Shown here piece after piece: positions 5,094 to 31,701 of a stretch of DNA of 64,000 bases (within the stretch, counting starts at the first letter, position 1; every line of letters begins with the position of its first letter). The notes beneath the pieces are model-generated. The model was not told the DNA's origin. It did not search any database and worked only from the letters and a program-made list of their open reading frames with translations. This DNA comes from Nageia nagi (Eukaryota > Plantae > Pinophyta): NCBI GenBank assembly GCA_050084985.1, contig JBITNC010000001.1, forward strand, positions 620,001-684,000, given 5' to 3'. Position numbers and translations under genes: made by a program.

Positions 5094-5541
5094 TCTTGTT
5101 TCATTTTATCCTAATAAAAAAATCGAGCCACTCTTTTATAGGTTTTGAGAAACTCAGAGTGTCTTGCTGATGGTGTAGCATGCAATTCCTGAAGTATTGC
5201 TTCTCAACAGCAAGAAGTGGATGGCAATGCAATGCGGCCATTGAAGTGTAAAACTCCATATTGCCAAGAGAAATTCCATTTACTAGCAGGATTAGTCTGA
5301 AGTTGTTGAATTAATGCCTGAATTGAATAATCTTGAATCCATTCTTATTTCAGTTGCTCTAGACACCAGGGAACTAACAGTGAGATTGCTTGAAGTATTA
5401 CGAGTTCCTCAAATTTACGGGAAAGAGCATCTGCAACCACATTCTCTGAACCCTTTAGATACACTATTTCATAGTCATATCCCAACAGTTTGGTCATCCA
5501 CTTTTGTTGTTCAGTTGTCGCAAATTGTTTTTCCATAAAAT
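5094..5541 (-). pseudogene. Ty3/gypsy pol fragment: RNase H end and integrase Zn-binding region (outer gypsy, piece 3)
   Basis: QQKWMTKLLGYDYEIVY..G.ENVVADALSR...AILQELHATPSARHS. Reads in frame from HHSLKYF at about 23690 once 5542-23677 is removed. Confidence 0.85.
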
Positions 5542-6845: not shown

Positions 6846-7708
6846 TGGCATCCGCAAGAAAGAGCGAAAAGTCACATACCGAAGAAACACCTTCTAGGAC
6901 CATCCATGAGGAGGATCATCGACCATCAATGAATGAGGTGCCGAATGAAGGTGCATCTAGAGAGGAGGATGATGCACCAAGAGGAAGATCTACATTAGCC
7001 AGGAGAAGAGGCTCTACTCCGATTCAGGATTCCACACCTAAACGGAAGTTCAATGAGCTCATCTCAGCCATCCATAACATGACGAGAGCCATCACTGCCA
7101 TGCAACAGTAGCTGAATAGGCTTGTAGGAGTTCGTGAGGAGCCGAAGAGGCAAGTCAACCCCCCACGTCCTATTCCAAGTGATAGAGAGGAGCCACATAA
7201 GGAGGATAGGGCAGACAAGGAGTCGAGCATGAGGAGATCCCGTAGCTTGAGAGATCAGGAATCTACTCACCATGGATCTATGGGTCATCCAGAACCCACA
7301 TTTCTAAGATCCCATTCACACTGAGCACCACCAAGCACTAACCCTCGCCTAGGGAGGTACCTGCAGGAAGACGTTGGCAAGATGGTGGAGCAACCCATAA
7401 TCCCTAAGCCATCCAAGCCCATGTTCGCCAAGAAGTCATGGGAGGAGACAAAGAATAGGGTTGCTAGTCCACTAGATCTGAATCAGATTTTTAGGGAGTA
7501 TTCCATGCTCGATCTAGGGTCGAAGAGAGATGTCAACTTCAGCAACTACCTAGAGATCTTAGGGTTGAAGGGGAGTAAAACACATGGCCCACATACCCCA
7601 ATTAGTTCATGGGGAGACAAGAAAGACCTGTAACAAAAGATAAATAAATTGCATGTGCAGATGTACAGGACATGGTTGCATCAGCTACAAACTTACTTCA
7701 CATTAAGG
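6846..7708 (+). pseudogene. Degenerate gag, N-terminal part
   Basis: MASARKSE... through QKINKLHV...WLHQLQTYFTLR, a gag-like motif downstream of the PBS. Confidence 0.65.
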
Positions 7709-10700
7709 CACGGAAATGCTGAAAATGGGCAGAATTGAATACTTTGAGCCTAGAAATGACAGAAAATGACAACTTTAAGCTCGAAAGGCGAAAATGGTCA
7801 TTTTTGTACTGTTTGAGCTCGAAAATCATCGAAAATACAGAATTTGAGCTCGGAAATCATCGAAAATACAGAATTTGAGCTCGAAGGTGCTAGAAAGGGC
7901 GTTTTGGTCGACTTTGAGCTCAAAAATGCCAGGAGTGGTTCAAAATGCATAAATTGAGTCCCGAATGTCCAAAAATACAAGCTTGAGTAGCCTTAGCCCT
8001 AGGCACATTTTCCCAAGGTATTGAAGATCTAAGTGAGGGAAAAATGGTGCATGTTTCTAATAGATAAATACAAATAGTATCAGAATTCGAGTCTAAGAGC
8101 ATATTCGGAGAGATAAGATGAATTCTATCACAGTCCAAACTCAATTTTCGATTTTGACCAAGTCTAAGGCACTCCGAGGCTAGGCACAGTTTTTCAAGCC
8201 TATGGGAAATCCATAAAGATGCATTTTGGTGCCTAGATAGTAAATAAAAAGTGGAAATGCATCAAAAATGAAATCTAAATGCATGAATAAGTGGAAAAGA
8301 TGGTTCTAAGCCACATTAGGTCTCGAAATTTTTGATTTTGAGCAAGTAAAGGCCCCCAGAATGCTAGGGGCAAGTTTCTAAATGTTTTCAAATCCATTGG
8401 AGTGATAAATGGTGCCTAGATTGACAAGATGGAATGTTTTTTTATTTAAGTGCTTGCGACCAAGGAAAACATGATTGTAAGCACATTTAGGTCTCAAATT
8501 TTTTGATTTTGAGCACATTTGGGCACCTTAGAGGCTAGGCGTAGGTTTTGAGAGCTATGGAAATCCAATGGAATTAAAAATGGCACTTAAAAACAAAACA
8601 TTTGATAAAAATTGGTCAAAACTCAAGTTTGAGGGGTCCATTGGATGTAAAATGTGTTTTCTAGCACATTTAGGTCTTGAAAGTTCAAATTTTGGGCAAG
8701 TTTTGACCCTCCAAAGCCTACGCATAGGTTTGCAAATGTTTCCAATTCCATAGGGATGAAAAATGGCGCCTAACTTGGAGGGATAAGTGAAAAATGCACT
8801 AAAATTTGATCCCAAGGTGTCAATTGCATCAAAAACGCCATTCTAAATACATTTAAACTTGCAAAATTCAAATTTTAAGCAATTTTGAGGCACCTAAAGG
8901 GTAGGCATAGTTTTTCATGCCATTGGAAATCCAATGAAGTGAAATCTAGCGCCTTGGAACAAGATTTTTTGAAAAATTTCCTCAAAATCCAAGTTTCAAG
9001 GGTCAATTGCAAGGAAAACATGATTTCTAGCACATTTAAACTTGCAAATTTCCAAATTTGAACAAGGGAAGTGGCCCAAAATCCTAGGCACAGGTTTGCT
9101 GATTTTTCTAAAACCAATGAAGTCAAAATCAGTGCTTAGCATGAAGAGGAGTGAAAATTTTGCAAAAAAATAATTTTTTTTTACATGGTTGCATGGAAAA
9201 GGGCATTCTAAGGATGTTTAAACTTGCAACTTTTCAAAATTAAGCCCTAGAAATGCCCCAAAAAGTCAGGTGCAGGTTTCCAAGCCATTGGAGAACCCAA
9301 AAAAGTGAAAAATGGCACCTAGATGTAAGGAGAAAGCCCCAAAAGTCATCAAAATTTGATTTTGGGCACATAGATGGGTGAAGGAAGTGATTTGAATCAC
9401 ATTTAAACTTTGAAATTTTTCATTTTGGCCCAAAGAAGTGCCTCAAAAAGTCAGGCGCATGTTTGCAATCCTGTGGAGTGTTTAAAGGCTCCAAAAACTT
9501 AAAAACTATGCAAAATGCACCCTTAGAGCACTTTTCAGGTCAAAAACCCACTAAGGAGCATGCAAAAGGCATAAAAAACCTATAAATACCCCCTCAAGCC
9601 TCTCATTTTCTCCACAAACACTCTCATTAAGCCTCCATGCACCCATTTTTGAGCAAAATCCTCACAAAACCTCACAAAATTGCTCACAAGATCCAAAATA
9701 AACCAAAACCTAGTCAAAAAATTTCAAGAATCTTAGAATTCCATCCTCTATCCACCCATTAGGTCAAATCCACTTTTTAAAAATTTTCAAAAATTCAGAC
9801 CCCCTCTATCTTTTGGCCATTTTCAAGTTTTTTGGAAAAAAGTGAAAAAACACAAAAAACACTTTTTCAAGGCTAAAAAACTCCAAAATTTTGAGTGATC
9901 CAAACGTTGAAGTGGATACCAAAGTGATAAATCCCATATAGGAGAGAACCCTCCATCATTCACTTCCCCCAAAAGAAGCTTGAAAACCCATTTTACATCT
10001 CTATCTTTCCAAGCTTCGAAGCTGCAAAAACTTGTCAAAAAACGAATACATGGGCTAAGAAAACGAGTTAATTTGGACCTTGCAAACTCGAAATTTTTCT
10101 CCAAGACTTGACCACAAGCCTCCTAGATTTATTTGCCAACATCCCATGCACTTGTTTTCCAATTTCAACGAACTTGAAAATTTGCAAAAATCCACACTTA
10201 GCTTTTGAAAAACCCAAAAATAAGACAAAAATTTGACTCTCTTTTTTGCTCCAAAATCGCTCCAGAGATACCCAATACCACTCCTAAAACCTTGTTGTAC
10301 TCCATAGGTTTGAATCATGAGCATTGATAAGAAAAACAAAGAACTCCAGATGGAGAAGCTCATGAAGACTAGCCTAATCACCCTAGAAAAATGAGGGAAG
10401 GCTCTTTTCCCTATGGCTGTGCTAGTATATGGCCTTGGACAAATCAAAGACATAGATTGGGCAAACACTGACCCCGTCAAGTCATTAGAGAAGATGGCCA
10501 AGATCCCACACGAACGACTGTTCAATGATACACTTGCTCAATGCAAGATCGTTGAACCTTCTTTGATCCCTTTTACCGCTCCATTCCTAGAACCGTGCCT
10601 CGAGGTAGCAAGATATTGCGACACAAAAGAGAGAGTCCTCCTCGACAATGAAGGCACAAAGATACTAGATTTCACTATGGAAGGAATAGAGAGCACATTT

Positions 10701-13700
10701 GCATGGAGTAATGAAGGCATCATATTCTCCATGAAAGAGTCCATCAGATTCTATAACAGCTTGACCAAGCTAGGGAACTTGATAAGAGATTGGTTAGTTG
10801 ACGAGTGCAAAGATTACAAGGCAAAGGCCTTAAGTCAACCCAAAAGTATAGACTTTATTCTATAGTCTCGACCATTATCAGTATGTTGTGCAGGATCACG
10901 AGACAAGAGAATGATCAAAGATTCGAAAAGGAATTCGTGGGCTTCATACATTAGATCAGCAGAAGCAAAGGGATCAGATGGAGTAAGGTGATCAACGACT
11001 GCTTAGCTCAACAGTTGTTTAGAATCGTAGAAACAAAGAGATTCTACATGAGCTCTTACTTGGTATTCCTGCTTCTACATGGCAAGAACAAAAAATCCGC
11101 CATAGCAAATACCAAGTACCTCTTTGATCCAGAAATGCCAGTATGGCAGAGTTACCCTAGATTCATGTTGGAAAACCGGTGGGACGAATTCAAAATGATG
11201 AATGAAGGATTCGAGTGCCATATATATGCGGAGTTAAAGGGGACCGTCAATATGACCAGGATATCAAAAGCGACGATCCAAGTTCTTCGAGGACATGCAC
11301 AATTTTATCTTGAAGAGATATATGCCACATATATCATGGTTTATGGGTCAATCGAGCCACCTTACAAACTTTCTCGTTACGCAAGTGGTCGGTTCATCCT
11401 GATGTAATTTTGCAGACACTTGTTGTACCTACACGAGAAAGTCTGGTGTAAGAAAGGTGCCACCACATGCAAATTACCTATCTGCATAGGAGAGTACAAA
11501 TGCACATCATGGCATCAAGTCAAGACGATGAAGATGAAGCTGGCATATTATGGCTTCGCAGTAGAACATGCGGTAGAGTACTATGATCTTGAAGGTGTAA
11601 TTGATGCTACAAGAAAACCTGGCAAACTGATTACCCTCACAAGTCCCTAAGAAAGCTCGAAAGGTACAGAAATATAGATGACATCGAGCAGATCAACAAG
11701 CTAAATAGGGACTTGGCAGCAGAAAAGAAGCTTAAATAGACCGTGACCAAGAAAAAGAAGAAAAGAGGTCTGCAAGAGGAGAATGCAATAGCCAAGATAC
11801 ATCCTTCGATAATCCTTAAAAAGAATCCCTCAATTCCTTGTGAACTGCCACCAATTTCGCCTTCCGTGAGATTGACACAGGGGTAGTTTGGTCAATATGC
11901 CACACTCATTGTTCAACTAGGGCAAACTATTGATCAGACCATAAAAGGATTATCACAAGAGATAAGAAGCACTAAAGAGATTGGAAGCACTTCGCACCCA
12001 TACAAATGCTTGAAAAAATTGGTGGAAGTCCCTTCCAAAGGTCCATCTTGAGATGGGCAATTATATTATTCTGGCCCTAGTTCTCTTGCTTCTCCTGCCA
12101 GTGATAGCAAGGATGAATATGAGATTGACGAAGGAAACCTCTTGAGAGAACCCTTAGAAGATGGCCAGATATTTGAAATACCTTACATCTCAAGCAATGA
12201 ATCAAATTTATCAGTCGAAGAGATACCGGCCATAAGTGTTCCTAGCATAGAAGAACCCGTTCAGGCAACAAGACCTACATCTACACGGGCTTCCACACCT
12301 CGACAACCAAAGAAGACATCTCCACCTCAGAGAAAACCTCCACCACTTGCTTCAAGAAAGACCCCAACGTCTAAGGGAATAGCTTCCTCATCAGGAGGGG
12401 ATGGAGGAAATGAAGAGGATGAAGGTGAAGATGAAGACTAGAGGAAGAAAAGGAGAGAGAGAATATCAAAGGAATCCAGAGAGACAAGTGACTATAGTTG
12501 CCAATCCTGAGCCAAGTTACAATTTCGACATGACGGCACTTTAAAAAAACTTAAGAGCATATCATCCATCCGAAGCTCGTGCCAACCTTGAAACTGATCA
12601 GGAAATCAAAGAATGAACTTGAGCATGTAGCCACTTACGTCTCGATGAAGGATAATTCCATCATCATAGATACTGTTGTTGCAGAAAGGAAAAGGAATGC
12701 CGATGGAGAATTTGCATTAGTGGTGGAAACACGAGAAGAGCCATGTAAATCAATCGAAACTTTGGGCAGACAACATGCAGTAGTTTCTAATGTTGCAACA
12801 CTGAAAGAGGAGAACACTTCACAGAAGGTAGAAATCAAGGAGCTGAAAAGAGAATTGATTGAAAAGAGAAAGTTGACCGTAGATATCCAAGTTGCTAACT
12901 TGACTATTGAAGACATCAGGAAGCAGATCTCATTGAATATCGGGATTCAAGCGGTCAAACAAGAGTGGATTAACGAAACCAAAGAAGCTATGCAAGAGTT
13001 ATTCCTAGGAATAACTAACTTTTTTATTGAAGACAATGGATTGTTCATCGCTCAAGAAAGGATGCATGAGCTAAGAAGAAAAGCTATTGGTATGCCAATA
13101 ATAGTGGAGTACTGTCATCAATTCTTTTAATAGTATGATTGGTTGTTCTATGTCGTTTCAAAGTGTCAGGATTTCATCCAAGTCCGGACAAATTTCAAAG
13201 CAGACATGAGGAAATAGCTAGCAAAATACCAGTTTGATCCAAGGTTGATCGAGGAAGATGGATGTAGCAGAGACTATTCCACTGTAATAAATGAGGTTCA
13301 GCTGATAATCAACACTTCCCTCGAAACTGGAGATATTAATGTCCTCAAATCCGGCAAATAGCTCAAATATGGTAGCAATATGGCAGTATGGTGTAGTGAA
13401 ATGAAGAAGACTTCAAAACCATCACCACATATCTATTGGCAAATGAAGGGATAAAGGAGATCCTCAATATCGGAGTCAAAAATAGAGAAATCTTCATGGC
13501 ACAGACTTCAAGGCCACCATCGCATCACATGTGCAAACTGCAAATCAACCACCGTAATTTTTGTCACTTTACAAAATTTTGAAAATTTTGTAAATCAATC
13601 AACCGGGAAAGTTGAGAACCAAAAATCGACTAACCCTGCTCTCATGATCAGTCCACCTGGCAAGTAAAGCACCAAAAGTCAGATGACATAGTCGTAGCAG

Positions 13701-14804
13701 GCAAATATGTAATATTTTAAGGTTTTTTTATAGAATTAGGGTAACACTTGGAAACCCTAGAAATTCTATAAATAGACCGCATGGGGTCACTTCTATGGAG
13801 ATTCAAAGTTTGGAACTTTTCAAGGAATGAAAATTTTGAGAACAAGTTCAAGTTTTTTGTAAGAGGAGAAAAATTGTGAAAACTTTTATGTAACTCTTTT
13901 ACAAAGAAAATACAAAGTGGTTAATTCAAAGACTTGAGTTTGACACTTTTCATATTGATGTTACGGATTGATTCTTTGAGGGCACTCATAGTGGGTTTAT
14001 GTACTTTTGCTTTATTCCTTTGAAAGCTCTTGGGATTTAGAGAAGTTATCTCTGAAAAACATTAAAAAGTTCTTGAAGCCTACCTGTGTTTGTTGTTGGA
14101 TCCTTAACATGCAAGTTGATTAGGTATTCTACGTCAGTTTCTACTTTTATGACATCTTGTTAGGTCTCTCATCCAAAACTATGATCCATTCACTTTCAGA
14201 CCTTCCATTTCCATTCAATTAAATCGGTCCTATTCATAGAGAACTGACAATTGGTGTTCCTCCCCGCTCCTCTTTGAAGCATTTCGAACTGAAGTTGTTT
14301 GCTTGCAAGGTTGGATGAATTGGGTGAAAATTCCTTAACCGATCTGGAAGAGATTAACTCTTAGACACTTTCCCGTCAGTGAACCTCAACCTCATATCAG
14401 ACCAAGTATTCTTGCTTTCTCCAAGGTGTTTTCTTTCACCTCTTTATAGTATTACCTTTACGCTTTCTTTATGCTTTCATACCAAATATGATCGTTAAGT
14501 CCACACACAAAAGCTCCGAACAAACTCTATACATCAAAGAATTAAATATCGTTGGTTAACAAACTATATACCTCTCATTCCATTCCATTGAAGCTGATTC
14601 CAAAGAGGGATACCGCACTTTATTTCCATATCTATCCCTATTTAGAAAACACATCAGGCGAACAAACCTTACAATGACACGACGTTGGGGTCGTTGGCAG
14701 GGTGTTTCAACAAGAGCCTTGGAGGTACACAGTCCTTTTCAACCGAGGGAATTCGTAACGCATATCCAACTATGTTGCTTGGGGTCTCGTAAGTTCCGCC
14801 AACA
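7698..14804 (+). mobile_element. Gene-carrying TGTTG...CAACA unit, subfamily B copy 1 (5' about 690 bp deleted)
   Basis: Colinear with the reverse complement of about 24830-31010. Ends CCGCCAACA, and host gag/protease sequence resumes after 14804. Confidence 0.85.
10317..13667 (+). pseudogene. Large accessory ORF, about 1115 codons (copy B1): globular N-domain, acidic/Pro linker, coiled-coil C-terminus
   Basis: ORF pieces 10413, 10988, 11420, 12142 and 12579 join into one frame MSIDKKNKELQMEKL...ISPPGK*. Homologous to three other copies. Confidence 0.8.
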
Positions 14805-15431
14805 ATATTTAGTGTGTCCCATGCGGGAAAGAAAAGCATCCCAACACATATGATCTAGAGCCGACCATGAAGTCCCTCAAGGGAGGGTAGACATACAAAG
14901 GGTCGATCACACGGAAGTCTTTCGTCGACAAGGGCCTACCAAACCATTCCCCCCACCTCGAACGAACCAACTGGATGCAGCCCCATAGAGGAAATTGAGG
15001 ACGGCAAGTGCTTCTACTGCAAGAAGACTTGGGATCCAGGGCACTGTTGCCAAGGCAAGGGAAAAGTGCATTACATAGAGGTATTTTTGGAGGATGAGTT
15101 GAACGATTCAGATTTGGATCTTGGCATGGACACCCTAGATCAGGAGACACCATGAGCAGAGGACACCTTAGGGAGCATGATCACTTCACTTCATGGGGTG
15201 AAGAAGTACCTCACACTAAAAGTTGTGGGGCAAGTAGGTGGTCAGGATGTGATGGTCCTGATTGACCCAGGAGCATACCATAACTTCATCGATGCAAGCT
15301 TTGTAGAGAAGAAAAATCTAAAAGCCAAGGGGTTCAAAGGATTCAAAGTTTCCAATGTCAAAGAGAAACTCACGATTGTGGACCACATCCTTGAGAGATT
15401 AGGGAGTGCAGTGGCTATTTGATTTGGGTGA
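14805..15431 (+). pseudogene. gag C-terminus and aspartic protease of the 5542-23677 element
   Basis: KCFYCKKT/WDPGHCC knuckle and VMVLIDPGAYHNFID retropepsin motif. VQWLFDLG continues as DIHTNHQKLTMSFKIDGK after 21402. Confidence 0.85.
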
Positions 15432-18400
15432 TGTTGGGGGCTTTTTCTTTGCTACCCCTTGCAAGTTAACAAATGTTATTACAAGGCTTGTACAAAGACT
15501 CCGACACTTGAGTGGTAGGGCGTTTCCCTTACCCGCTATGAGGACTTTTACCTCAGGTTTGGAAATGGAGGGTGCAAGGGTTCACTCAGGTGAAAAGGTG
15601 GAGATGTTTAAAGCTGTTACCAACTCAAAATAGAATTTGTTACTCAAGGACTCAAAGGGTCCCTAATCCAAGTATAATTGTTTCTCGAAAGGAAGAAATA
15701 AAAATAGTCTGTTGTGAAAGCCACACAAAGAAAATGAAAAAGAAAAGAAAAATAAAAGGAGTGAAAAGACAGTGATATATGAGTTGGGCTCCTAGGCAAT
15801 GTTTTCACTGATTAATATGACTTTCTAAAATCGAACTTATCCAAGTTTGATATAAGTTCCACGCACCCCAATTCCAGCTCGGAAGGCAACAACACGAATG
15901 TCCTAACAAGAGGAGTTTGGTGCTAATGCAATGAAAGAAAGGTGTGTCGTAGGTATGACTTAATATTGGGGTGAAGTTCTTATGCTAAACGGCATACACA
16001 AGTCATTTCGGAACACATTAATCCTCAATGCAAACTATGAAACATCACAATGAAACACTTATTGAAATATTTCCAAAAGATATACAAGCACTCTTTTATC
16101 CACCTATTAGGTTTATAAAATGACCCAAATATTCAAGACAACATTAACATGTAATACGCATTCACATTCATAATTTCAAATGCAAACAAGCTCACTTCAA
16201 TTACTTGAAATCATATCATAATTGCGAAAAGAGAAAACTTGTAAGCTTTAGAGTATTATTTTAAGTAATCCCAATTGCAAAGAATGTCTGATCCCCCTAC
16301 AAATGAGCTTAAATAGGCTACTTCTAGTTTTTAGAGCAACCCAAAGTGTTTCCCTAACCCTAATTACAATTTCCAAGAAATGAAATATGGTCCAACAAAA
16401 ATATGCCACATGGCATTACAAGATGTCCTCCAAATTTGTGGGAGCAAATCCTCATCCATCACAAATTTGGGAATTTATTAACAAATAAATAAAGCCTCCA
16501 AAAGTAACTTATGAAATATAATAAATGCAAGACAACAAATATTGTGACTAGGCAGTTGGTGGGCCCAACACCTCTACATGCCCTTCAAAGTCATCGTCCA
16601 GAAATTTGGCCGTGAGCTTCAATCCATGTAGCATCTCTGATAGCTTCGGCCCATTCTTCACCACGCTACGCTCTACTTTGTTGACAATCCTCATCATGGC
16701 CTTCTACCACGCATATCCTTTGAGCAAATGCTCCAAGTGACTACCTATCTGGAAAGTATTAATGTCTTCGATCATGATCAGACTATGAAGGAAGTGTCTC
16801 ACTTCCGCCACTATAAGGTCTTTGTCACGGATGGCCGCATCATCGTCAAGAAACTTCACCTGGAACTCCATTTGCTCAAGACAAGTATTTGTCTTGTCAT
16901 TGAGCTTTTGAACATCCTTTTGCACCTCCTGGAATCAGGTGGTTATTTGGTTATCTACACCCAAATAGAACCAATATTCTTCGCAAAACTTCATATCTTC
17001 TGGCTCCCGATTCCATGACATTTCAAACTGCATGATCATGGGCCGTCTAGAATCCAAGATCCTGAGAAGACTGGTTCTCTCCACGATGATATCCTTGAGC
17101 TTTTGCTCCTCGAATGCTATCCTTTTTAGTGCTCCAATGAACTGATATACTACTACCAAGACCTCCTCTATATGCTTTTGTTTTACTACAATCATACCCT
17201 CCTTAAGCGGCTTGATTTTTCGGAGCTCTTCAGTGGGTACCTTAGCCGATTCTAATTCCTTGGTCAACTTCCTTTGTGTGGCTAACTCCTTCTTGAGGCC
17301 TTTGATCTCCTTATCTTTCATCATACCATCTTTTGTAATGGCCTCAACATTGGAGATGATTGCATATTTCCGACTAGCCAGACCAATCGAACCTGTGTTG
17401 ATGATCTGGTTAATCTGTCTAAGGTCTTCAGGGCATTGCGGATTTTCCTTATCAGCTATAATGGTCTTAATATGTATGGCATTATCAGCTAAGCGTACAT
17501 ATGTCTAGGTCCTCCTTGGGTGAGTGGATATTTCTCCAATATGGTTGTTCTTCTCTTCAGCCCTAAACTTTCTAGACATCCATATTAAACACATCTAAAC
17601 ACCCCTCCATATGGACACCCCACTCATTCGTGGTTGATGGCCGATAAGTCTCCACAACCACCTCTAGAATAGTAACAACATTTTTGTTCATTTTCTTCAA
17701 GGATCTCTTTGCTCATGATCACTTGAAGTTCTTGTAGCTCGTGACTGTGGGGTTCTCTTTAATAGAGCCCTCTTCTCCACTATCTCAGATACTAGCTCCT
17801 TTTCCTTCTCAGTAGATAGCTCTATCGTTGTTGTCTTATGGATTTCTGCCAATATCTCTATGAATTCATCTTGTTGTTGTGCATCGGGAATTCCCTAATC
17901 CTGGATTGCATTCTCTTCCTATTCTTATTCTGATGCTTCAAGCTCCCCTTCCTCTTGATTTTCATCAGGCTTATACAAGGGGCTAGAGGCTGATGATTTG
18001 AATGGTGGAACAACTGGTGACTTCATGATTGTCGTGGTTCTAGTTGGTCTCGGAGATGGAGAGGGATCTTTGTCTCTTTCTCACGCACCTCACCACTTTG
18101 TTTGTAACTACTCGTTCTAGCTCCCTTGCGTCATGCTCATCCATGGTGGCTTGCACTTGTTGCACAACTTGTTCGATTAGCCTTTTGCCACACATGGACT
18201 CATACTGACCAACTGGTGTCTCACCGACTGGAGGGAACTGTGTAACCCTAGAAGTAGACTCTTGAGGTTTTCTGCCCTTATGCTGTGATAGTATTTTACT
18301 GATGGTAGCTTCAACACGGTGCTGCTAATCATTTGCATCCTTGTGTACCCTTTCTCTTACCTTCCTTATTTCTATCTCATTGTTGATATTTCGGAAAGGC

Positions 18401-21397
18401 TCCTTGTCTACTAGTGACTTATGCTCATAAGGTTTCTTCCTTTCCTTCATGAAGAACGAGTGCATTCTGTGATCCGAATCATAATGGTTGGCAATAAGCA
18501 TTTTCTTAAAATTGAATTTTGCCAACTCTTCCTTCATGGTGTCTACATCCGTCCAGAACTTACACTGGTACTCTTCTACAACAATCGGCAAGTTGGAAGT
18601 GGCTGATTTCTTCTGCCATACCTGGTCATGTAGAAAGGCCAATTGCCTCATCATCTCCATTAACAACATCCTATTACTCACAAACCTAGCCAATTGATAG
18701 GGTTGAACGGTTGATTCATGTATACGAATATAAGAGAAGTGTTGATGATGGAGGAAGAAGTCTCCATGCTTCTTCAAAGCATCTTGGGTTGCATTTGAAA
18801 TCCGAGCAACCGTGATCTCTCCCTTGAGCTCTTTATATATCTCATACTCCCATCCATCGTTCTTCATCATGAAACTGTCCCATCTTCTCTCTAATTTCCA
18901 TTTGGGGTAGCATTTCCAAATGGAGTAAGTTCCTCTTTCTATCCATGTCATCTCCCCCTGCGTTGTAGCTCTATACTTGCTGTGAAGTAACATGTATACC
19001 AGGCATGAATTGAGATAGAATTTGCAAGTGGTACCTATGGATGATAATTGGTCTGCTATGGTATCACTCACCACCTTGCTCCACTTGATCCTTTTGCCCC
19101 TAGCAATTTTCAGAATGAACCCAAAGAATTCCTTCCTGAACTTTGAAGCATCTTCTTTCCCAAGAACTCTAGATAGCAAGAGTATCATCAGCTCACTTGC
19201 GGGATAGAAATTGGAATGAGGAGCATTGATGAGTGCATTTCCCTTCAATCTATGATGCTCCTCCAACATTTAGCTCTTGATAGAAACGGCTGCCCTGGGG
19301 TCCCCTGGTAACAACCTAATGATCTAGCCTCGTTATACTCAACTTCTCATTCAAAGGTCCACTAAAATGCTGCTTTGATGGCGTCCAGGCTGAAGTCCAT
19401 TATGATGTCTCCTTTAATACCTCAAAGGACACTCTCCCCTTTCTGCCAGTGGTGACCGACCTCCATGCACAATTCAAGAAATGGGGCTATGAATGGGACT
19501 AATGTGCAAGTGGAGAGTCCAGAGAAGAAGACAATATCCTGCTTCAAGTCAATGATAGGAAGACCATGAGTGCTCTCCCTCATCTACGTAGGGTCAATGT
19601 TTTGCCAATTTGTATCTCTAATAGTTGCAAAACCATTTCTCGAGAATTTATTCCCTTGGGGAAGGGCTTGTTGTCTCTCATGAATGGAGATGACACAATC
19701 CTATTTTAACCGCTCGAGATCCCTAATGAGGTCCGAAGCAAAATTGCCCTTAGAAGAAGTCATGGTGTTCTCACTTGCAACGTGGCTCCTCAAGAATGTT
19801 GCGTGGGTTTTCAAGTGAAGATGACACCCACGTTGGAGGGTCTTGCCTTCCAAGTGCTTGCGCAAGCCCTAGGATGGATGAATGATGATGTTTGAGCACA
19901 AAAATCTGCAATTTGCTGCTATCCTGGTGCAAGCGTAGAAGAGGAGTAAGTTTTTGAGTTTGAGAAAATGAGGTCCCTAAGCTTGTATTTATAGCCCACT
20001 TGGCTTCTAGCTTGCCCTAGTTGGCTAGGGTTACTGACAGAACTCATCATAGCCTTCCACTTGGCTGACCTAACTCATGCAAAGCCGCCTGTGCCCAAAC
20101 ATTTGGGTTTTAATGCTCAACCTAGATTGGTGCATGGAAAAAAAAGACAAAAAAGTGACTTTTTGAACCATGCGCCAGCCCTAGAAGTATGTATGCTTCC
20201 AAAGTTGGGTCTCCTGCCTTCATGCTTGCTTGCCTTTATCACCTAACTCACCCAAAAACCTGATTTTTCCTGATTTTGGGTCTTCTGGTTAGTTGGACTT
20301 ATCAATTTTGATGTTTCATTTCAATCTGGGCAACCTGTGGGCTTGGCGCATGCTTCCAAAAGTCAAGTTTGTGACCTTTTGAGGCATACGCCAGCCTTGC
20401 CTGTCCATCCAACCTGGTTGCATGGTTCAAAAAGACAAGATTTTATCTTTTTGAAGCATGCATCAGCCTCCACTTGGCCTATTTTCCGGAATTTGATCTT
20501 CAAGTGCTCATGCCTTAGCCAAATTTTTGTGTTTCTCGAATCCTGGAGGCTTCCTGGGCTTGGCGCATATCTCAAAAAGTCAAGAATTTGTCTTTTGAGA
20601 CCATGCGCAAGCCCCTCTGGGTATGCTTGAGCTGGTCTTTAGTTTCCTGGGTTCGGAACTTGTCAAATTTTCCACTTTTCTCGAACTGGCAACCCTTCTA
20701 AGCTTCGCGCATGGTTCAAAAAAACAAGATTTTGTTTTTTTTGAAGCATGCGCCAACCTCCTAGGTGACTCATGTTCATTTTCTAACCTCCAAACTTGCT
20801 CAACTTGCCCTCCTGACCAAGTCGCATGGTTCAAAAAGACAAGATTTTGTCTTTTGAAAGCATGGGCCAACCTTGTAGTGCCTTTGACTTGGGTTTTTCG
20901 TGCTTACTTTTGCTCCATTCTGCTGCCTATGTTTGGCGCATGCCAAGGAAAGACAAGATTTTGTCTCCTAGAGGCATGCACTAGGCTTGCAAATGCCCAA
21001 ATTCATTTCTTGAGCCTTCCCTCCTGTATGGACGACCCTAGGCCCAATCGCATGATTCAAAAAGACAAGATTTTGTCTTTTGAAAGCATGCACCAGCCCT
21101 TGGAGATGCCCAATTTGCTTTGATCGGAGTCTGACTTTTCCTAGACTCCCTAGTTCACCTAAGATCGACTTTTACCCTTCCCAAACTTAGCCATTTTTAG
21201 AGTTTTTGAAATTGCTATCTTGACATGACTAACCCTAAATGAAGGAAGAGGCTTGGCTTATAAGGAGTTGTCCATGAATATGGATCTTTGAGATGCAACT
21301 TTCGTAAGACTGATGACAAAAAAATGAAGTATATACATTGGTGCATTGAGGGTCCCCAAAATCGTAGGATTTTGGGGGATGTGTTTTAGTCACAACA
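15432..21397 (-). mobile_element. Gene-carrying TGTTG...CAACA unit, subfamily A copy 2 (complete, 5966 bp)
   Basis: TGTTG/CAACA termini, TSD GGTGA/CGTGA (4/5). The host reading frame is restored on removal. No internal LTR pair, gag or pol. Confidence 0.9.
16548..19763 (-). pseudogene. Large accessory ORF, about 1070 codons (copy A2)
   Basis: MTSSKGNF...IRDTNWQNIDP...PFIAPFLELCMEV...(ORF 18325..19269: FRKEFFGFI..I..GK.IKWSKVVSD..ADQL...FYLNSCLVYMLLH)...coiled coil...LGPPTA*. Confidence 0.8.
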
Positions 21398-22420
21398 CGT
21401 GACATTCACACCAATCACCAGAAACTCACCATGAGTTTCAAGATCGATGGGAAGACCCATACACTGCAAGGAATTCGAGATAATTGTCCACAAGTGGACA
21501 GTACGCGTCTAGAGGTTATTGAGTGATGCCAAAAGGAGGAAGCAAAAGATAGGGCCACGTTGGATGAGGAGTCTCGACAGGAGAAGAGGAGAATTGGGGA
21601 GCTCCCATACCCCACGTTGCATCCCAAGGAGCTTGGAGGGATCACATCGGGCTTAGAAGGCCTCCCACACTACACGTTAGGCCTTAGGGATGGCTTCCAC
21701 CTCACGTTGCACACCAAAGTGGTTTATCACATCACATTGGGCATTAGGGAGACTTGCCACCAGATGTTGAGTTAGGACATCCAGTTCCCCACGTTGGATT
21801 AAGGAGAGCTACTACACCTCACGTGGGAGGATGAGGAATATTTGCACATGATGAGGAGCATGAAGGGGTTTGAGCACCCCACGTTTGGCTTGGAGGGTCT
21901 TGAGCATATAATGGCTGGGATAAGGGGGTGTTGGCTCCCACGTTGGACTTGGCAAGGTCTGTGTACATGATGTTGAACCAAATAGCAGTTGGGCACCCCA
22001 CATTGGAATATGGAGGAGTTTTCGACCTCACATGGAGTGATGGGGGAGCTCGGGTCCCCACATTAAGCTTCGGGGAGGTTTGGCCTCATCTATGGAGCAA
22101 GAGCTCCATTTGTTTAAACTCACCCATGATTTACTTGAGGTTTTTACAGGTACACCCTTACGGAGGTACACATACATCCTCATGTGTGCTAAGGAAGATA
22201 GTGGAACAGCTAATGGGAAGTGACAGTTACAGCAAAATAGAGTTTTTGCATGCTACATTGATGCATGGCTATGAAACTTCAGCAATCTGCATCACACTGT
22301 TATCATGGGTAGAAGGTATTGAAGTTGCATTCCACCATGGCAGACCATGGCTATTAGGTTTGAAGGATGCTCGGAAAACAATATGCTGCAGTCTCCATTA
22401 TTATTTGAGGGCAAGCAATT

Positions 22421-22435
22421 GGAGAGGGAAGGCCT
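22421..22435 (+). promoter_or_regulatory. Polypurine tract
   Basis: GGAGAGGGAAGG just before the 3' LTR start TGTGAC. Confidence 0.75.
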
Positions 22436-23677
22436 TGTGACATCCCCCTTGCATTATTTTCATTAATTATGGAATCCAACAGATTCCCCTTAGTAATATA
22501 TTTTATTATTGCATTGTACTTTCAAGTTGTAGCTTGGGATAGAAGACTTCATAGGTCAATGGACCCCATTGTGAGCCCCAAATGGGACGTCTCCCTCCCA
22601 AGCATAGATTAGGTGTTTTATTATACTTGGAGATTCCGATCTTGATTGTGGGAATCTCAAGGTCTGTTTTGCACTTAGATGGATGGATGAGCACTTGTAT
22701 ACATGCGCCAACCTTGGGGAGACTCCTAGACCCCCACGTTGCCCCATTATGACACCTAGATCCCATGCATGGCTCCTAGAGCCACGTTGGGCATGCATGG
22801 CACTCCTAGATCCCCACATTGGCATTTATGGAACTCTAGGCCCCCATGTTGGCATGCTTGACCCCTAGGCACCCATGTTGGGCATTCTGGGTCCCCAAGA
22901 GGCTAATGTTGGGATTAAGGAGTGAGGTGATGACTCCTAGGTAAGATCCAAACAGAGTTGAGCGTATAAAGAGGCATTGGAGCCTCATTGTTGGATATAC
23001 CTAATTATACTATTATCTCTTGATACCATCCTATGGACACAAGTCTTAGCAGCGCTAAGCAATCCCCTAGGTGCTGCATCTAGGAGGGCTATCAAGATGA
23101 GGGATCTTGTAGCCTACGGCATTGGTGTAGCACCCTTGCCCATCTGGTGGTATTCCGAGGTTGCGCTTCTACCTTCAGTGGTTTCTGAGATCAAAGGAGG
23201 GGTCCTTCAATGGAGAGGATTCGGCTTTCAAGGGAGCAATATTGTCCTATGGTTCCACCATCCGTCTAGCAGTGAGAGACATTCAGTTGTGCCCTAATTG
23301 GCTCCTTGGAGGCCAACGTCCAGCTTTGGGAGCTTGGTATTGTATCACTTGTCATTGCTTATCATATATACATCCGTTGGGCATTTGAATCTCATGTTGT
23401 ATTGTTCTTATGTCCATTATTGCAATGTTGTGGGGTATTTGTTCATTTATGCATGTATGAGCCAGACATTGGCATTGTGAGGGTTTGTACATTGATATTT
23501 GTTTGTCTTGGCTAGATGTTGGCATCTTTGTGTTGTGTACACTTGTAGTGGATGCCTTAGCTCAGACGTTGGCAATATTGTGTTGTGAATGCTTAATGTT
23601 GATGCCCTAGACCAGATGTTAGGGTTTTTTAATCGAATTTGCTGATTTGCACTTGAGTTACATTTGGGATCCTTAAA
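22436..23677 (+). repeat. 3' LTR of the 5542-23677 element
   Basis: Direct repeat of 5542-6759. The terminal CA is mutated to AA and is followed by TSD AAAAT. Confidence 0.92.
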
Positions 23678-24104: not shown

Positions 24105-27100
24105 TGTTGGGATGGAAACCTTTCCTACGTACCTATGATCACCTTCACATGATCAGGAAGGGGAAAGCACCCAACATTTAGGTGAAATAGCATAACTTAC
24201 CTCCTCTTGAAAGGATAGAAACCCCAAGGTTTGTTCATGTTCCCATTGAAGAAGCACAATTTTATATATGATTATGGGAATCAACTTAACTGGTTTGTAT
24301 GGAGGTAGAGTCTGTTAACTCACTTTTTTTTATAGGGATAGTGTTTTTATGATGATTGAAAATTGCTCTGGTTTTGCAAAAAATGAATGCAAGAAAGATA
24401 AAAAAAAGCAAATAAAAAAAACAAAGAAAATTGAGAATGATCCAATACCGGTTAGACCACAAGGCGACCGTCACAACAAAGCATTGTCTAAAATGAGACG
24501 TTTTCTAATCAATTAGGAAGTTCTCTTTCATTCAATCTAGTTCAAAGTGAATGACTATTGTCCAATCAGCTTTGAATTTAGAGCAAGAGGCAACACCGAT
24601 TGTCGGTACTCTACAAACGGGACCGATGCAATTGAAGAAACTTAACATGAAATGCGCACTTTGGAACCAAGTTTGAACGAAAGCTTCAAATAGGATATAG
24701 AAAAGAAACAACTTCAGAATACATTTTGTTCAAAAGTGCAAGAGGCAAAAGGTGGCAAACTATGAAAGAGAGCCACAAAAGAGAATCCATTCACCACTCC
24801 ACGTATGACAAAGTCTCTTGAGAAAATAAGTCACCACTTTGTATTAGCTTGTAAAAGATTTACAAAAAAGTTTCCACAATTTTCTTCTTTTACAAAAAAT
24901 TTGAACTTTTTCTTGAAATTTTTATTCTTGGAAAAGTTCAAACTGTCATTTTACATAAAAGTGACCCTATAGGGTCTATTTATAGAATTTCTAAGGTTCC
25001 CAAGTGTTGCCCTAATTCTATAAAAAAAATATTAAAAAATTACATATTTGCCTCTTATGACTAAGTCAGTTGACTTTTGGTGCTCTACTTCCAAGCTAAC
25101 TAATCATGAGAGCAAGGTTAGTTGAGTTTTGGTGCTCAACTTTCTCGGCTGATTCATTTACAAAATTTTCAAAAATTTTCAAAGATGACAAAAATTACGG
25201 TGGCTGATTTGCAATTTGCATATGATACGATGGTTGCCTCAAAGTTCGCACCCATGAAGGTTTCTCTGTTTTTGACTTCGGTGTTGATAATTTCCATAAT
25301 CCATTCATTTGCCAATAGATACGCAGTGATGGTATTTGAAGTCTTCTTCATCTCGCTGCACCATATTGCCATATCACTGCCATATTTGATTTGCTTGCTA
25401 GATTTAGAAACATTAATGTCTTCAGTTTCGAGGTAAGTGGTAATCATTAACTGGACCTCATTTATCACCATGGTGTAGTTCCTACTGCATCCATCTTCCT
25501 CAATCAATTTCAGATCAAATTGGTACTCTGCTAGCTATTTCTTTATGTCCTTGAAATTTGTCTAGATTTGGATGAAATCTTGATAGTTTGAAATACTGTA
25601 GAACAACCAATCATACTGGTAAAAGTATTGATGACAATATTCCAGTAGTATTGGCATGCTAGCAATCTTCCTTATCAGATCATACATCACTTGATAACTA
25701 TTGCCCCACCTGGCAATCAATTCATGGATCCTGCCTTGCACAACAAATGATCCACTCTCTTTGATAAAGAAATTGGTTATTTCTAGGAATAACTCTTGGA
25801 TAGCTTCTTTAGTTTTCTTTATCCACTCCTCTTTAACCACTTGAATCCCAGTATTCAACGAAATCTGTTTCCTAATGTCTTCAACTATCATGTCAGCAGC
25901 TTGGATGTCTACGATCAACTTCTTGTGTTCGACCAATTCTCTTTTCAGATGCCTGAGCTCTACTTTCTGTTATGTATTCTCCTCTGTTCGTGCTGCAACA
26001 TTGGTTACTATTGCATGTTGCCTGCCCAAAGTTCCGATTGCCTTACATGGCTCTTCTCATGTTTCCACCACTATTGCAAAGTCCCCAACAACATTTCTTT
26101 TTCTCCCTAGAACAACAGTGTCGATGACGATGGACTTGTCCATCGAGACGTAAGTGGCTATATGCTCAAGTTCATTCTCTGAATCCTAATCGGTTTCAAA
26201 GTCGGCACAGGCTTCAGATGGATGATATGCCCTTAAATTTTTTAAGAGTGTCGCCATGTCAAAGTTGTAACTTGGTTCAAGACCAGCAACTGTAGTCACT
26301 TGTCTCTTAGGGTTCCCTTGGTGTTCATCCTCTCTCCTCTTCTTCCTCTGGTCTTCATTTTCACCTTCATCCTCTTCATTTCCTCCATCCCTTGCTGATG
26401 AGGAATCTATTCCCTTGGAAGCTGAAGTCCTTCTTGGAGCAAGTGGTGGAGGTTTTCTCTGAGGTGGAGTTGTCTTTCTTGATTATTGAGGTGTAGAAGC
26501 CCGTGTAGAGGTGGGTTTTGTTGCTTGCACAGGTTCTTCCATAGTAGAAGGATCTATGGCCGGTATCTCTTCGACTGATGAATCTGATTCATTTGATTCA
26601 TCGCCTAAGTTATAAGGTATTTCAAGTATCTGGCCATCTTCTAAGGGCTCTCTCAAGAGGTCTCCTTCATCAATCTCATATTCATCCTCGCTGTCACTGG
26701 AAGGAGGAGCAGGAGAACTAGGGCAAGAATGATATAATTGTCCATCTCGGGATGGACCTCTGGAAGGAACTTCCACCAGCTTCTTCAAGCGTATGTACAG
26801 GTGTGAAGTGCTACTAGTCTCTTTAGTGCTCTTTATCTCTTGTGATAATCCTTGTATGGTCTGATCAATAGTTTGCCATGGTTGAACAATGAGTGTTGCA
26901 TATTGACCAAATAACCCCTATGTCAATCTCACGGAGGGTGAAATTGGTGGTGGTTCATATGGAATCAGAAGATTCTTCTTAAGAATTATCGAAGGATGTA
27001 TCCTAGCTACTGCATTCTCCTCTTGCAAACCTCTCGTTCTTCTTCTTCTTGGTTATGATCTACATGAGCTTCTCTTCTACTACCAAGTCCTTGTTTATCT

Positions 27101-30100
27101 TGTTAATTTGCTCTGTATCATTTACATTTATATACCTTTCAAGCTTCCCTAGGGATTTGTGGGTATAATCGATTTGCTAGGTTTTCTTGAAAAATGTGTT
27201 GATTACACACCTCGGGGTCATAGTACTCTACTGCCTATTCTACTATGAAGTTGTAGTATGCCAACTCCATCTTCATTGTTTTGACTTGATGCCAGGACGT
27301 GCATTCGTACTCTCCTATGTGGATGAGTAATTTGCAAGTGGTGGCACCTTTCTTACACCAAACTTTCTCGTGTAGATATGACAAGTGTCTGCAAAGTTCC
27401 ATCATGATGAACCAGTTACTTGCGTAACGAGGAAGTCTATAAGGTGGTTCAATTGACCCGTAGACCCTGATAAATGTGGCATCTGTCTCTTCAAAATAAA
27501 AATCAGCATGTCCTCGAAGAGCTTGTATTGTTGTCTTTGATATTCTGGTCATATTGACCATCCCCTTTATCTCTTCATATATCCGACATTCGAATCCATC
27601 ATTCATCATTTTGAATTCGTCCCACCAGTTTTCCAACAGGAATCTAGGGTAATTCTGCCATACTGGCATCTTTGGGTCAAATAGGTACTTGGTATCTGCA
27701 ATGGTGGGTCTTCTGTTCTTACCATGTAAGAGCAAGAATACCAAGTAAGAGCTCATGACAAATCTTTTTTTTTCTACAAGTCTAGACAGTTGTTGGGTCA
27801 TGCAATCGCTGATCACCTTACTCCATCTGATACCTTTGCCTCTGCTAATCAGATGTATGAAACCCACAAACTCCTTTCTGAATTGTTGGTCATTCTCTTG
27901 CCCTATAATTCTGCACAACATGTTGATAATGTTAGAGACTATAGGATAGAAGTCTATCCTCCTTGGTTGGCTTAAGGCCTTTGCCTTGTAGTCTTTGCAC
28001 TTGTCAACCAACCAATCTCTTATTACGTTCCCCAACTTTGTCAGGCTGTTAAAGAATTTGACGAAGTCCATCATACTGAATATGATTCTCTCATTGCTCC
28101 AAACAAAAGCGATCTCTATTCCTTCCATAGTGAAGTCTAATATTTTTGTGCCTTCAGTGTCAAGGACTCTTTCCTTCTAGTTGTAGTATCTGGCTACCTC
28201 AAGGCACAATTCTAGAAATGGAGTGGTATATGGGATCATAGAGGCCTCAACGATTCTGAACTGAGCAAGTGTGTCGTTGAGCAACCGTTCATATGGGATC
28301 TTGGCCATCTTTTCCAATGACTTGACAGGGATAGTGTGTGCCCAGTTTGTGTCTTTGATCTATCCAATACCATCTACTATCACAGGTGTAGGGAAGGCAG
28401 CCTTCCCTCTTTTCTCCAAGGTAATCTCAATAGTCTTCATAAGCCTCTCCATCTGGAGCTCCTTGTTTTTTTTAGCAATACTCATCATTTATGCCCTATG
28501 GAGCACAACAAGGTGTTAAGAGTGATGTTGGGTATCTTTAGAGTGATTTTGAAGTGAAAAAGATAGTCAATTTTTTTGCCTATTTTTGGATTTTTGAGAG
28601 GCTATGGATTTTCAAAAATTTTGAAGTTCGTCGAAAGTGGGAAACAAGTACATGGGGTGTTGGAAAATAAATCTAAGAGGCTTGTGAACAAGTCTCAGAG
28701 AAAAATATCGAAGTTTCTATGTCCGAATTAACTCGCTGTTTTTTTAGCCCATGTATTCGTTTTTTGACAGTTTTGGCAGCTTCGAAGCTAGGAAAGATGG
28801 GGGTGTAAAGTGGGTTTTCAAGCTTCTCTTGGGAGAAGTGAATGATGGAGGCTGTTCTCCTATATGAGGTCTATTACTTTTGTATTCACTTCGAAGTTCG
28901 GATCACTCAAAATTTGGGAGTTTTTGAGCCTTGAAAAAGTGTTTTTTGTGTTTTTTCATGTTTTTGAAAATGCGGGTCCCGAAATTTGGAAATTTTTTAA
29001 AAAGTGGAATTGACCTTATGGATGGATGGAGGGTGAGATTATAAGGTTCTTGAGAAAATTTGAGAAGGTTTGGGGCTGTTTTGGATCTTGTGACCAATTT
29101 CAAGTTTTTGAGCAAGTTTGTGATGTTTTGTGAGAATTTTGCTCAAAAATGGATGCATGGAGGCTCAAGGAATGTTGTGGAGCAAATGAGAGGCTTAGGG
29201 GGGTATTTATAGGGTTTTTGTGCCTTTTGCATTATCCTTGGTGGTTTTTGACCTAAAAAGTGCTCTATGGGTGCATTTTGCACATTTCTTAAGGTTTTGT
29301 GGCCTTCAAACACTCCATAGGCTTGAAATTCAGCCCCTAGCTTTTGGAGGCACTTCCTTTGGTCAAAATGGAAAAATTCAAAGTTTAAATGTGATTCAAA
29401 TCACTTCCTTCACCCATTTATGTGCCCCAAATCAGATTTTGATGAGTTTTGGGGCTTTCTCCTTGCATCTAGGCGTTAGAAATCACTTGTTTGGATTCTC
29501 CAATGCCTTGCAAACCTACGCCTGAGTTTTTGGGGCATTTCTAGTGCTTAATTTCAAAAATTTGCTGACCTAAACATGCTTAGAATGCCCTTTTCCATGC
29601 AACCATGTGAAAAAATTTGATTTTTTTGCAAAATTTTCATTCCTCATGCTAGGCACTAGTTTTCACTCCAATGGGTATAGAAAAATCAGCAAACCTACAC
29701 CTAGAATTTTGGGCCACTTCCCTTGCTCAAAATCGAAAAAATGCAAGCTTAAATGTGTTTATTTTCATGTTTTCCATGCAATTGACCCTTCAAACTTGGA
29801 TTTTGAGGAAAATTTTTGAAAACTCTTGTTCCTCGGAGCTAGATTTCACTCCATTGGATTTCTAATGGCATGAAAAACTGCGCCTGCCTTTTAGGTGTCT
29901 TAAAATTGCTCAAAATCCAATTTTTACAAGTTTAAATGTGGTCAAAATGGGGTTTGTCACCTAATGGACCCCTTGGAATCAATTTTTATTGCATTTTTCA
30001 CTTATCCCTCCAAGTTAGGCGCTAGAAATCACTCCTATGGATTTGGAAACATTAGCAAACCTGTGCCTAGCCTTTGGAGGGTCAAAACTTGCTCAATTTA

Positions 30101-31701
30101 GAAATTTTCAATACCTAAATGTGCTAGAAATCACATTTTACACCCAACGAACCCCTCAAACTTGAGTTTTGACCAAAACTTATCAAATTTCATGATTCTA
30201 TGTGCTAGATTTCATCCCATTGGATTTCCATAGCCTTAGAAACATGTGCCTAGCCTTTAGGGTGCTCAAAATCAAAAATTTTGAGACCTAAATGTGTTTG
30301 CAATCATGTTTTCCTTAGTCCCAAGCACTTAAACTTGAGTTTTGGTCAAAAAACATTCCATCTTATCATTCTAGACGCCGCTTTTCATGCCAATAGATTT
30401 GGAAACATGCGCCTAACATTTTGGGGTCTTCACTTGTTCAAAATCAAAAATTTTGAGACCTAATGTGCCTTAGAATCTTCATTTCCACTCATTTATGCGT
30501 TTAGATTTGATTTTTGATGCATTATCATTTTTTCTCCACTTTCTAGGCACCAAAATGCATCTCTATGGATTTGGGCTTGGAAAACTATGCCTACTCTTTG
30601 AGTGCCTTAGACTTGGTCAAAATTAAAAATATCAAGTCCTAACTATGATAGAATTCACCTTATCTCTCCGAATACGCTTTTAGACAAGAATTTCAATACC
30701 ATTTGTATTTATCTATGAGAAACGTGCACCATTTTTCCCTCACTTGGGTCTTGAATAGCTTGGAAAAACATGTCTGGGGCTAAGGGTACTCAAACTTGCA
30801 CTTTCGATCCATTCTAGACTCAATCTGTGCATTTCCGATCACTCCCAGCATTTTTGAGCTCAAACTCGATCAAAATGCCTTTTTCGGCACCTCCGAGCTC
30901 AAACTCTACATTTTTGATGATTTCCAAGCTCAAACGATGCAAAAATGATCATTTCCGGGCTCAAAGTATTCAATTCCGCCCATTTTCGACATCTCCAGCC
31001 CTTAGTGTGAGAAAATGACCTTTTCAGGCATTTTCGGTATTTTCAAGCATTTTTGACCATTCTGGACTCAACTCGTCACTTTTAGTCATTTCTAAGCTTT
31101 TCGGACTCAAATCGTGCAAAATTGCATTTTTTTACCATATTGGCCATTTGCAGGCTCAAAAGTGACCAAAACACGCTTTTCTACCTTGCCTTTTTCTAGC
31201 TCTTCGGGGTCAACCTTGACAAAAACGTCCATTTTTGTCATTTTCAAGGCACCTGGACTGAAAGTCTCATTTTTGTCACCTAGGTACCTTTGTGCTTAAA
31301 TTCTGCAAAAATATGCCTTTCTGTTGCGCTAAGCACCTGTGAGCTGAGTCTGCAAAAACACACCCTTTTTGTCAACTTGGTACTTTTGCACTTGAATGTT
31401 GCAAAAACGTGCCCTTTTTCGCCCTGTTGGCCATTTTGTGAAAAACTCTCTTCCTAGTCGCCATGATCCAAAACTGCATCCTGCTTGATGTTGCTTGAAA
31501 CTGGGTCATGAATGGTCGCTGGACATGTTGAATTGCCTTGGTGCCTCTGGGCTACTTGTGTGCATTGCATCATCACTTGGCCGCTCTGATTCTTCACTCT
31601 GGCCGTCGTCTAATCATCTTCAGGCAATGTCGTCCATTGCCTTCAAAAAAAGTAAGGTTCCCAAAATGCTACATCTTGGGGTGTGTTATGCGGGCACAAC
31701 A
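24105..31701 (-). mobile_element. Gene-carrying TGTTG...CAACA unit, subfamily B copy 2 (complete, 7597 bp)
   Basis: Perfect TSD TGATC (24100-24104 and 31702-31706) and TGTTG/CAACA ends. Interrupts RT at KTWEDH|LAHLDQ. Confidence 0.92.
25085..28485 (-). pseudogene. Large accessory ORF, about 1130 codons (copy B2)
   Basis: ORFs 27235..28128, 26483..26788, 25562..25936 and 25169..25507 are highly similar to the B1 pieces. Confidence 0.82.

Follow-up and report, generated by a model that had tools for sequence, protein, structure and literature searches.

The window analysed here is a stretch of 64,000 nucleotides (nt) from the conifer Nageia nagi (GenBank assembly GCA_050084985.1, contig JBITNC010000001.1, positions 620,001 to 684,000 of the forward strand), and all coordinates below count from its first letter. 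It holds four copies of a repeated element that belong to two subfamilies, A (A1 and A2) and B (B1 and B2), and are listed with their features in Table 1. Copy B1, on which we concentrate, is a decayed copy of a mobile DNA unit of 6–7.6 kb that carries a single gene. All copies in the window are dead. A unit consists of 1.4–2.5 kb with a repeat array, a TATA box, the open reading frame (ORF), and then about 1.1–1.3 kb with a conserved block that includes a second TATA-like box. The unit has no second long ORF and no repeat common to both ends.

Copies B1 and A2 both start with TGTTGTG and finish with CCCAACA, with a hairpin about 20 nt from the start. Their TGTTG...CAACA termini recur as the ends of A1, B2, and two (L001 and L002) of the three metagenome loci, L001 to L003, that were compared with the window copies, and the homology of L002 to B1 begins exactly at position 21397. 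Both complete copies combine TG...CA ends with a 5-bp target-site duplication (TSD; GATCA/GATCA for A2 and TCACG/TCACC for B1). An empty B1 site, with a joint of 15423 to 21401, is present in two public runs from one sample (X1 and X4, of which X4 may be RNA). The Ty3/gypsy pol reading frames interrupted by B1 and A2 resume beyond each site, and host sequence is contiguous around all three assessable window copies. Helitrons have no TSD and a CTRR 3' end; such an assignment was rejected because of the 5-bp TSD and the CAACA end.

Six-frame translation and tblastx showed that a single long ORF has left a colinear remnant in each of the four copies, always broken by stops and frame changes. The remnant in B1 lies where the initial annotation had placed it, and the four copies that it had claimed are present. 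In B1, the frame changes once near 19270–19314 and several more times in the linker, and internal stops number five in the first 150 codons, none in the 314-codon core (18328–19269), and three in the last 328 codons. Stop-free A-type forms of 758 and 838 residues exist outside the window. The two subfamilies have indeed diverged in DNA yet remained colinear in protein: blastn of A2 against B1 returns two short matches alone (62 and 26 nt), whereas amino-acid identity between A and B is 35–43 per cent in the N-terminal core and 22–25 per cent in the C-terminal part. The motifs that had been picked out by eye stood up unevenly. The six N-terminal motifs each exceed 20 shuffles in A1, A2, and B1 (for example, 17–18 of 18 fixed letters against a shuffle maximum of 6), although the shortest, with six of seven letters in A2, lies merely one above its shuffle maximum, and two had been spelled with their spacing off by one. 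The terminal PP occurs in all four copies, in a shifted frame in A2 and B2. The motif GRQHA..SN, on the other hand, is matched at seven of seven letters in A1 and B2 and at six in A2, but at four, the level of chance, in B1, and the TYV motif contains a one-residue gap in A2.

Table 1. Coordinates of copy B1, its parts, and the other copies of the element in the window.
Feature	Position	Strand	Remarks
Element copy B1	15432..21397	-	complete, 5966 bp, ends TGTTG...CAACA; sits in protease region of host Ty3/gypsy element
TSD of B1, left copy	15427..15431	.	5 bp, one mismatch to right copy
TSD of B1, right copy	21398..21402	.	5 bp
Sub-terminal hairpin of B1	21354..21377	-	about 20 nt inside 5' end; also present in A2, L002, and the 5' end at 2309
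Array of 8 dyad-symmetric repeats	20125..21098	.	upstream of promoter, B-specific; candidate binding sites
TATA-like box upstream of ORF	19986..19994	-	position same in L002, A1, and A2
Decayed single ORF of B1	16548..19763	-	about 1070 codons; ATG at 19763 to stop at 16548
Conserved N-terminal domain	18328..19763	-	about 430–470 aa; about 19640–18814 is the counterpart of the homolog-model range aligned to VANC21
Acidic Pro/Ser-rich linker	17535..18327	-	little conserved, several breaks
C-terminal helical, coiled-coil-like region	16548..17534	-	ends GPP
Conserved block after ORF	16270..16483	-	second TATA-like box in other copies; candidate core promoter of a long terminal repeat (LTR)
Element copy A2	24105..31701	-	complete, 7597 bp, perfect TSD GATCA; within Ty3/gypsy reverse transcriptase (RT) gene; ORF 25195–28488 (-)
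Element copy A1	7705..14846	+	5' end deleted; inside host Ty3/gypsy gag; ORF 10317–13557 (+)
Element copy B2	1..2087	+	3' part only, window begins inside B2; ORF tail 1–980 (+)

The ORF was long under strong purifying selection, as had been proposed. In pairwise codon comparisons of the window copies and the loci L001 to L003, the ratio of nonsynonymous to synonymous substitution (dN/dS) is between 0.07 and 0.37 in all eight within-subfamily pairs or regions with measurable dS. Between A1 and A2, it equals 0.18 in the N-terminal core (confidence interval 0.13–0.23), 0.35 in the linker, and 0.25 in the C-terminus; within subfamily B, it equals 0.07 for B1 and L002, 0.12 for B1 and L003 (0.37 in their C-terminus), 0.09 for L001 and L002, and 0.25 for B2 and L001. 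Synonymous sites are saturated in four further comparisons within B, as well as in 17 of 18 comparisons of A with B, for which the dN of the N-terminal core is 0.5–0.6; third positions are always the least conserved.

The protein belongs to a sizeable family. A profile search of 1.84 billion representatives returned 260 clusters at E ≤ 0.001. Among the 144 new clusters within the best 150 of these, 23 are at least 50 per cent identical to the window family, 47 are at 35–50 per cent, and 74 are below 35 per cent; a single named protein, a hypothetical protein of Taxus chinensis, was found among ten clusters looked up. When built solely from the 73 aligned members that are most distant, a profile still recovers A2 at an E-value of 1e-84 and B1 at 1e-71 (reversed controls, E > 0.05). 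The family alignment (143 sequences) comprises 120 of the 144 new matches and 23 closer sequences, with short fragments and one fibronectin-repeat false match (P0096) left out. Longer or fused forms (798–2275 aa) were sought and none was found, which is weak evidence, and scans of viral and prokaryote collections gave no context for the family.

Neither the window proteins nor the 143 family members have a notable sequence match in Pfam, PHROGs, or PDB, and Rfam has none in window positions 1–34000. The kinship to PF10536, PF20167, and PF04195 that the initial annotation had suggested was not borne out: no window protein matches any of the three, and they are absent among the best 25 of 58 families for the 143 members. 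Transposase_28, Transposase_32, and ATHILA ORF1 (PF03078) are likewise without a Pfam match. A standard transposase, RT, or gag was rejected, because there is no DDE transposase, RT, integrase, or gag match in Pfam or PDB sequences, and five scattered conserved acidic columns form no catalytic triad pattern; conserved charged columns are mostly Arg/Lys (eight against five acidic). An env-like membrane protein was rejected as well, since no 19-residue stretch in five proteins covering A and B reaches a hydropathy of 1.6 (maximum 1.47), and a membrane helix is therefore not indicated. The lack of DDE, RT, and transmembrane motifs reported on first inspection holds, whereas the env-like resemblance is not supported.

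A clue to the role of the protein comes from predicted structure. The model of a homolog, P0080, made from the 143-sequence alignment has a predicted local distance difference test (pLDDT) score of 87 and a predicted template-modelling (pTM) score of 0.84, and the homology of P0080 to the window proteins extends through the entire domain (E-values of 1e-35 to A2 and 2e-33 to B1; reversed controls, E > 0.05). In an exhaustive structural comparison with 48,161 chains, the top match was 9lnk_A, which is VANC21 bound to its target DNA (Z-score of 7.1), and this was the sole chain with Z ≥ 5, the next one having a Z-score of 2.7. The alignment comprises 233 residues (of 362 in the target) with a root-mean-square deviation (rmsd) of 4.4 and 5 per cent identity; it spans model residues 29–303, and the aligned range corresponds to residues 41–311 of the A2 protein. 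An independent, weak lead is a cluster in the ESM Atlas, 70 per cent of whose members have DUF1985 (score 0.88). VANC is a DNA-binding protein with which plant transposons evade silencing. DUF1985 is the VANC domain, PMD-C structurally resembles the DUF1985 of VANC, and PMD-A is retrotransposon-encoded (bioRxiv 10.1101/2024.09.27.615353). We predict that the N-terminal domain shares its fold with VANC21 and is DUF1985/PMD-like, the match being a moderate one. The preponderance of Arg/Lys among the conserved charged columns, with conserved Arg columns at 185, 306, 332, 345, and 358 of P0080, also speaks for this reading. Given this likeness of the homolog, the ORF product likely helped the element to stay active, and an anti-silencing role, taken by itself, is modestly favoured. 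Among the guesses of the initial annotation (an anti-silencing, chromatin, or targeting role), it is the anti-silencing or chromatin one that gains support from the predicted fold and the weak DUF1985 lead.

Several observations weigh against this prediction. A Z-score of 7.1 is below 8, in a range common for models without a clear match, and may reflect a common arrangement, and the identity is very low. At a threshold of E ≤ 0.001, Foldseek with the good P0080 model found nothing in either PDB or BFVD, and VANC21 was not among the matches listed. The modelled protein is a homolog 22–23 per cent identical to the window proteins and not the window's own; the model of a close A-type protein is poor (pLDDT of 45), Foldseek found no match for it, and structural comparison yielded generic helices and did not reproduce the VANC21 match. 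The atlas score lies under 0.9, and a second atlas query gave no match. Finally, neither the window proteins nor the family members, for the latter among the best 25 of 58 families, have a Pfam match to PF09331 (DUF1985), and there is none to PMD.

The non-coding part of the unit offers a possible target. The core of each unit of the B1 array is about 22 bp long with GCATG on its flanks, and at one cut-off the motif occurs eight times in B1, four times in L002, and not at all in A1, A2, 20 shuffles, or window positions 32–64 kb. L002 keeps the array even though its synonymous sites are nearly saturated in comparison with B1, and motif columns of the two are 82 per cent identical as compared to 70 per cent elsewhere, a difference that may be inflated by the alignment. 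The A copies have a different array of about 183 bp with a weaker motif and no clear palindrome, which tells against the VANC-like reading. The position of the B array upstream of the promoter is also that of VANC targets. VANC proteins co-evolve with the family-specific motifs that they bind, which have accumulated in non-coding DNA through tandem repetition (PMC5735166).

Under an anti-silencing role, the ORF would be transcribed from the first TATA box, and the N-terminal domain would bind the cognate array, probably as a dimer, because the array units have dyad symmetry. Binding might then keep the promoter region unsilenced, both in the same copy and, in trans, in its relatives. The acidic linker and the helical C-terminus could serve as activation or oligomerization parts. 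Should the unit be an LTR whose U3 contains the gene, the retro-promoter would lie in the second TATA block, and the unit would have been inserted by the LTR integrase of a parent element. Contig coverage of that block is far above that of neighbouring DNA in all four runs.

The ends of the unit are those of an LTR integrase product: TG...CA termini with a 5-bp TSD fit most plant LTR lineages (PMC6317226 supplement 3). The initial annotation of this ORF mentioned neither such ends nor the TSD. We consider the units probably to be giant LTRs that have nearly always collapsed to solo copies. The flanks are at odds with this assignment. No primer-binding site (PBS) adjoins any of nine 3' flanks (five from the window and L001, and four from public contigs), no polypurine tract (PPT) adjoins any of three 5' flanks, and no parent element with gag-pol was found in the window or in the public loci and contigs covered. 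A fifth 5' end in the window (2309–2800), with the same terminal motif and hairpin, was excluded from this count of 12 ends, because the DNA downstream matches no A or B copy; no partner 3' end or TSD was found for it, and it might represent either a third subfamily or a separate family that has this end in common. Solo LTRs are rare in conifers, with solo:complete ratios of 0.13–0.25 (PMC5751070), and at such ratios the probability of finding no PBS at nine flanks is 0.003–0.005. With the ratios of Retrosat2, whose LTR is 3.2 kb long (2.6:1, and up to 10.5:1; PMC3485330), it is 0.11–0.47. The flanks therefore require a solo:complete ratio of approximately 3–10 or more, a demand that detracts from the solo-LTR interpretation.

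The alternative that survives best is that the units are stand-alone elements, which we regard as a minority possibility. In its specific form, which is unlikely, the same VANC-like gene would be carried by a non-autonomous element with 5-bp terminal inverted repeats that depends for its movement on an integrase-type enzyme supplied in trans by a partner. Such an element would account for the contiguous host DNA around the three assessable copies, for the lack of a PBS or PPT at all 12 ends, and for the scarcity of solo LTRs in conifers (PMC5751070). It also agrees with the contigs: among the contig records listed, deep contigs stop at the terminal base of the B1-type 3' end, and the four flanks beyond are all different. 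However, these flanks rest on the records listed, with 45 of 74 lying outside them, and the ends have no direct repeat, so there is no known retro route. Moreover, we know of no plant DNA transposon with such ends and a 5-bp TSD, and long LTRs do yield many solos, as Retrosat2 does (PMC3485330).

The protein itself could also have another task. As an accessory factor with a PMD/DUF1985 fold, it might direct integration, package RNA, or activate transcription while leaving methylation unaffected. A common fold by itself shows no function, direct DNA binding by PMD-C itself is unproven (bioRxiv 10.1101/2024.09.27.615353), the functions of the extra ORFs (eORFs) of Tat and Retand elements are unknown (PMC4408406, PMC11963269), and nothing in the VANC match corresponds to the long helical C-terminus. 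Nevertheless, the one structure that stands out as a neighbour is that of an anti-silencing factor, and a family-specific array of the kind that such factors use is present in the element; another task is improbable. A chance match to VANC, with a protein of unrelated orphan fold or else a transposase or env-like protein that has diverged far, is very unlikely: the modest Z-score, the rmsd of 4.4, the lack of a sequence signal, and the poor A-type model are set against 4.4 Z units to the next match, 233 of 362 target residues aligned, the independent DUF1985 lead, and the absence of a DDE-like triad, a membrane helix, or a transposase, RT, or gag family match.

For the reading as a whole, in which a VANC-like self-anti-silencing gene resides in an LTR-type unit that is most likely a giant LTR left as solo copies, we find the case evenly balanced. 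A broader proposal is more tentative and somewhat doubtful: that conifers harbour an abundant and old class of TG...CA units whose only gene is a VANC-fold, sequence-specific anti-silencing factor beside its co-evolving target array, either as a gene built into an LTR or as a stand-alone element moved by a borrowed integrase.

All three assessable copies (A1, B1, and A2; window 7705–31701) are inserted in Ty3/gypsy coding regions, which may reflect targeting or merely local density. Two LTRs of one host Ty3/gypsy family (5541–6757 and 22435–23675) are 88 per cent identical; downstream of the former come a Met-type PBS at 6761 and the gag that holds A1, and the same element carries B1 in its protease region. 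Elsewhere in the window, a 623-bp inverted duplication (3496–4118 and 4444–5056; 89 per cent identity, arms 325 bp apart) lies over a degenerate coding-like stretch. Decayed Ty1/copia pol remnants occupy 34693–37317 (+) and 58137–58802 (-), where we take the segments, by their look, to represent integrase, RT, and RNase H. A fragment at 45690–46031 (-) resembles the N-terminus of a pentatricopeptide repeat protein. A short element at 58929–62644 has 138-bp direct repeats at 59250 and 61735 (96 per cent identity), a Met-type PBS at 59390, a plant-gene-like fragment (60209–60577), and tandem arrays of 120–210 bp on both outer sides.

What the extra ORFs of plant LTR elements do has been an open question for a long time, and the VANC type of counter-defence has been described from DNA transposons. 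If the LTR version of the broader proposal is correct, this would be the first plant LTR with a built-in anti-silencing gene, and even solo LTRs would supply anti-silencing in trans. A VANC-fold family of at least 260 clusters, on LTR-type units with subfamily arrays, would be a candidate mechanism for element multiplication in the heavily silenced giga-genomes of conifers. Units of 6–7.6 kb would escape LTR scans capped at 2 kb, such as that in PMC4408406. No ORF inside a plant LTR and no such conifer unit is described in the literature covered, which left out most subscription papers; the available parts of PMC11728184, PMC13477047, and bioRxiv 10.64898/2026.08.24.746577 contain no description of such a unit.

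Among known systems, VANC and the VANDAL elements share with our unit an element-encoded accessory gene and, for the N-terminal 275 residues of the homolog, the predicted fold. VANDALs, which are Mutator-like elements, have a MuDR transposase and a TSD of about 9 bp; here, a single ORF without a transposase gene is bounded by TG...CA ends and a 5-bp TSD, the protein has no Pfam DUF1985 match, and it has about 150 extra conserved residues, a long linker, and a helical C-terminus. Common to both are a family-specific array in non-coding DNA and a conserved domain combined with a variable region (PMC5735166), yet the array motif is a 22-bp palindrome here and a 9-bp, oriented motif in VANC. Thus, VANC-like by prediction, the unit is no member of VANC/VANDAL on account of its missing transposase, its TSD, and its lack of a Pfam match. 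A PMD eORF is carried by TatIII elements of gymnosperms (PMC4408406), and Ogre/TatIII PMD eORFs resemble our gene in being long accessory ORFs with a globular domain and a coiled coil, in large elements with a 5-bp TSD and tandem repeats, for which LTRs of up to about 5 kb have been reported (PMC4408406, PMC6317226). However, those eORFs belong to the internal region, where most are in antisense orientation between pol and the 3' LTR, whereas the ORF here lies within the TG...CA-bounded unit and has no PF10536 match. The antisense TRP28 ORFs of Retand and the Transposase_32/ORF1 genes of Athila are likewise accessory genes with their own promoters that adjoin tandem arrays and have a proposed regulatory DNA-binding role (PMC11963269, PMC11728184). 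They differ in belonging to angiosperm lineages and in not lying within an LTR, and the protein here matches none of PF04195, PF20167, and PF03078. The sag gene of mouse mammary tumour virus lies inside the retroviral U3. There is no sequence relation between the two, and the LTR status of our unit is inferred, but if that status is right, sag and the ORF described here are alike in being genes with their own promoter in a long terminal repeat.

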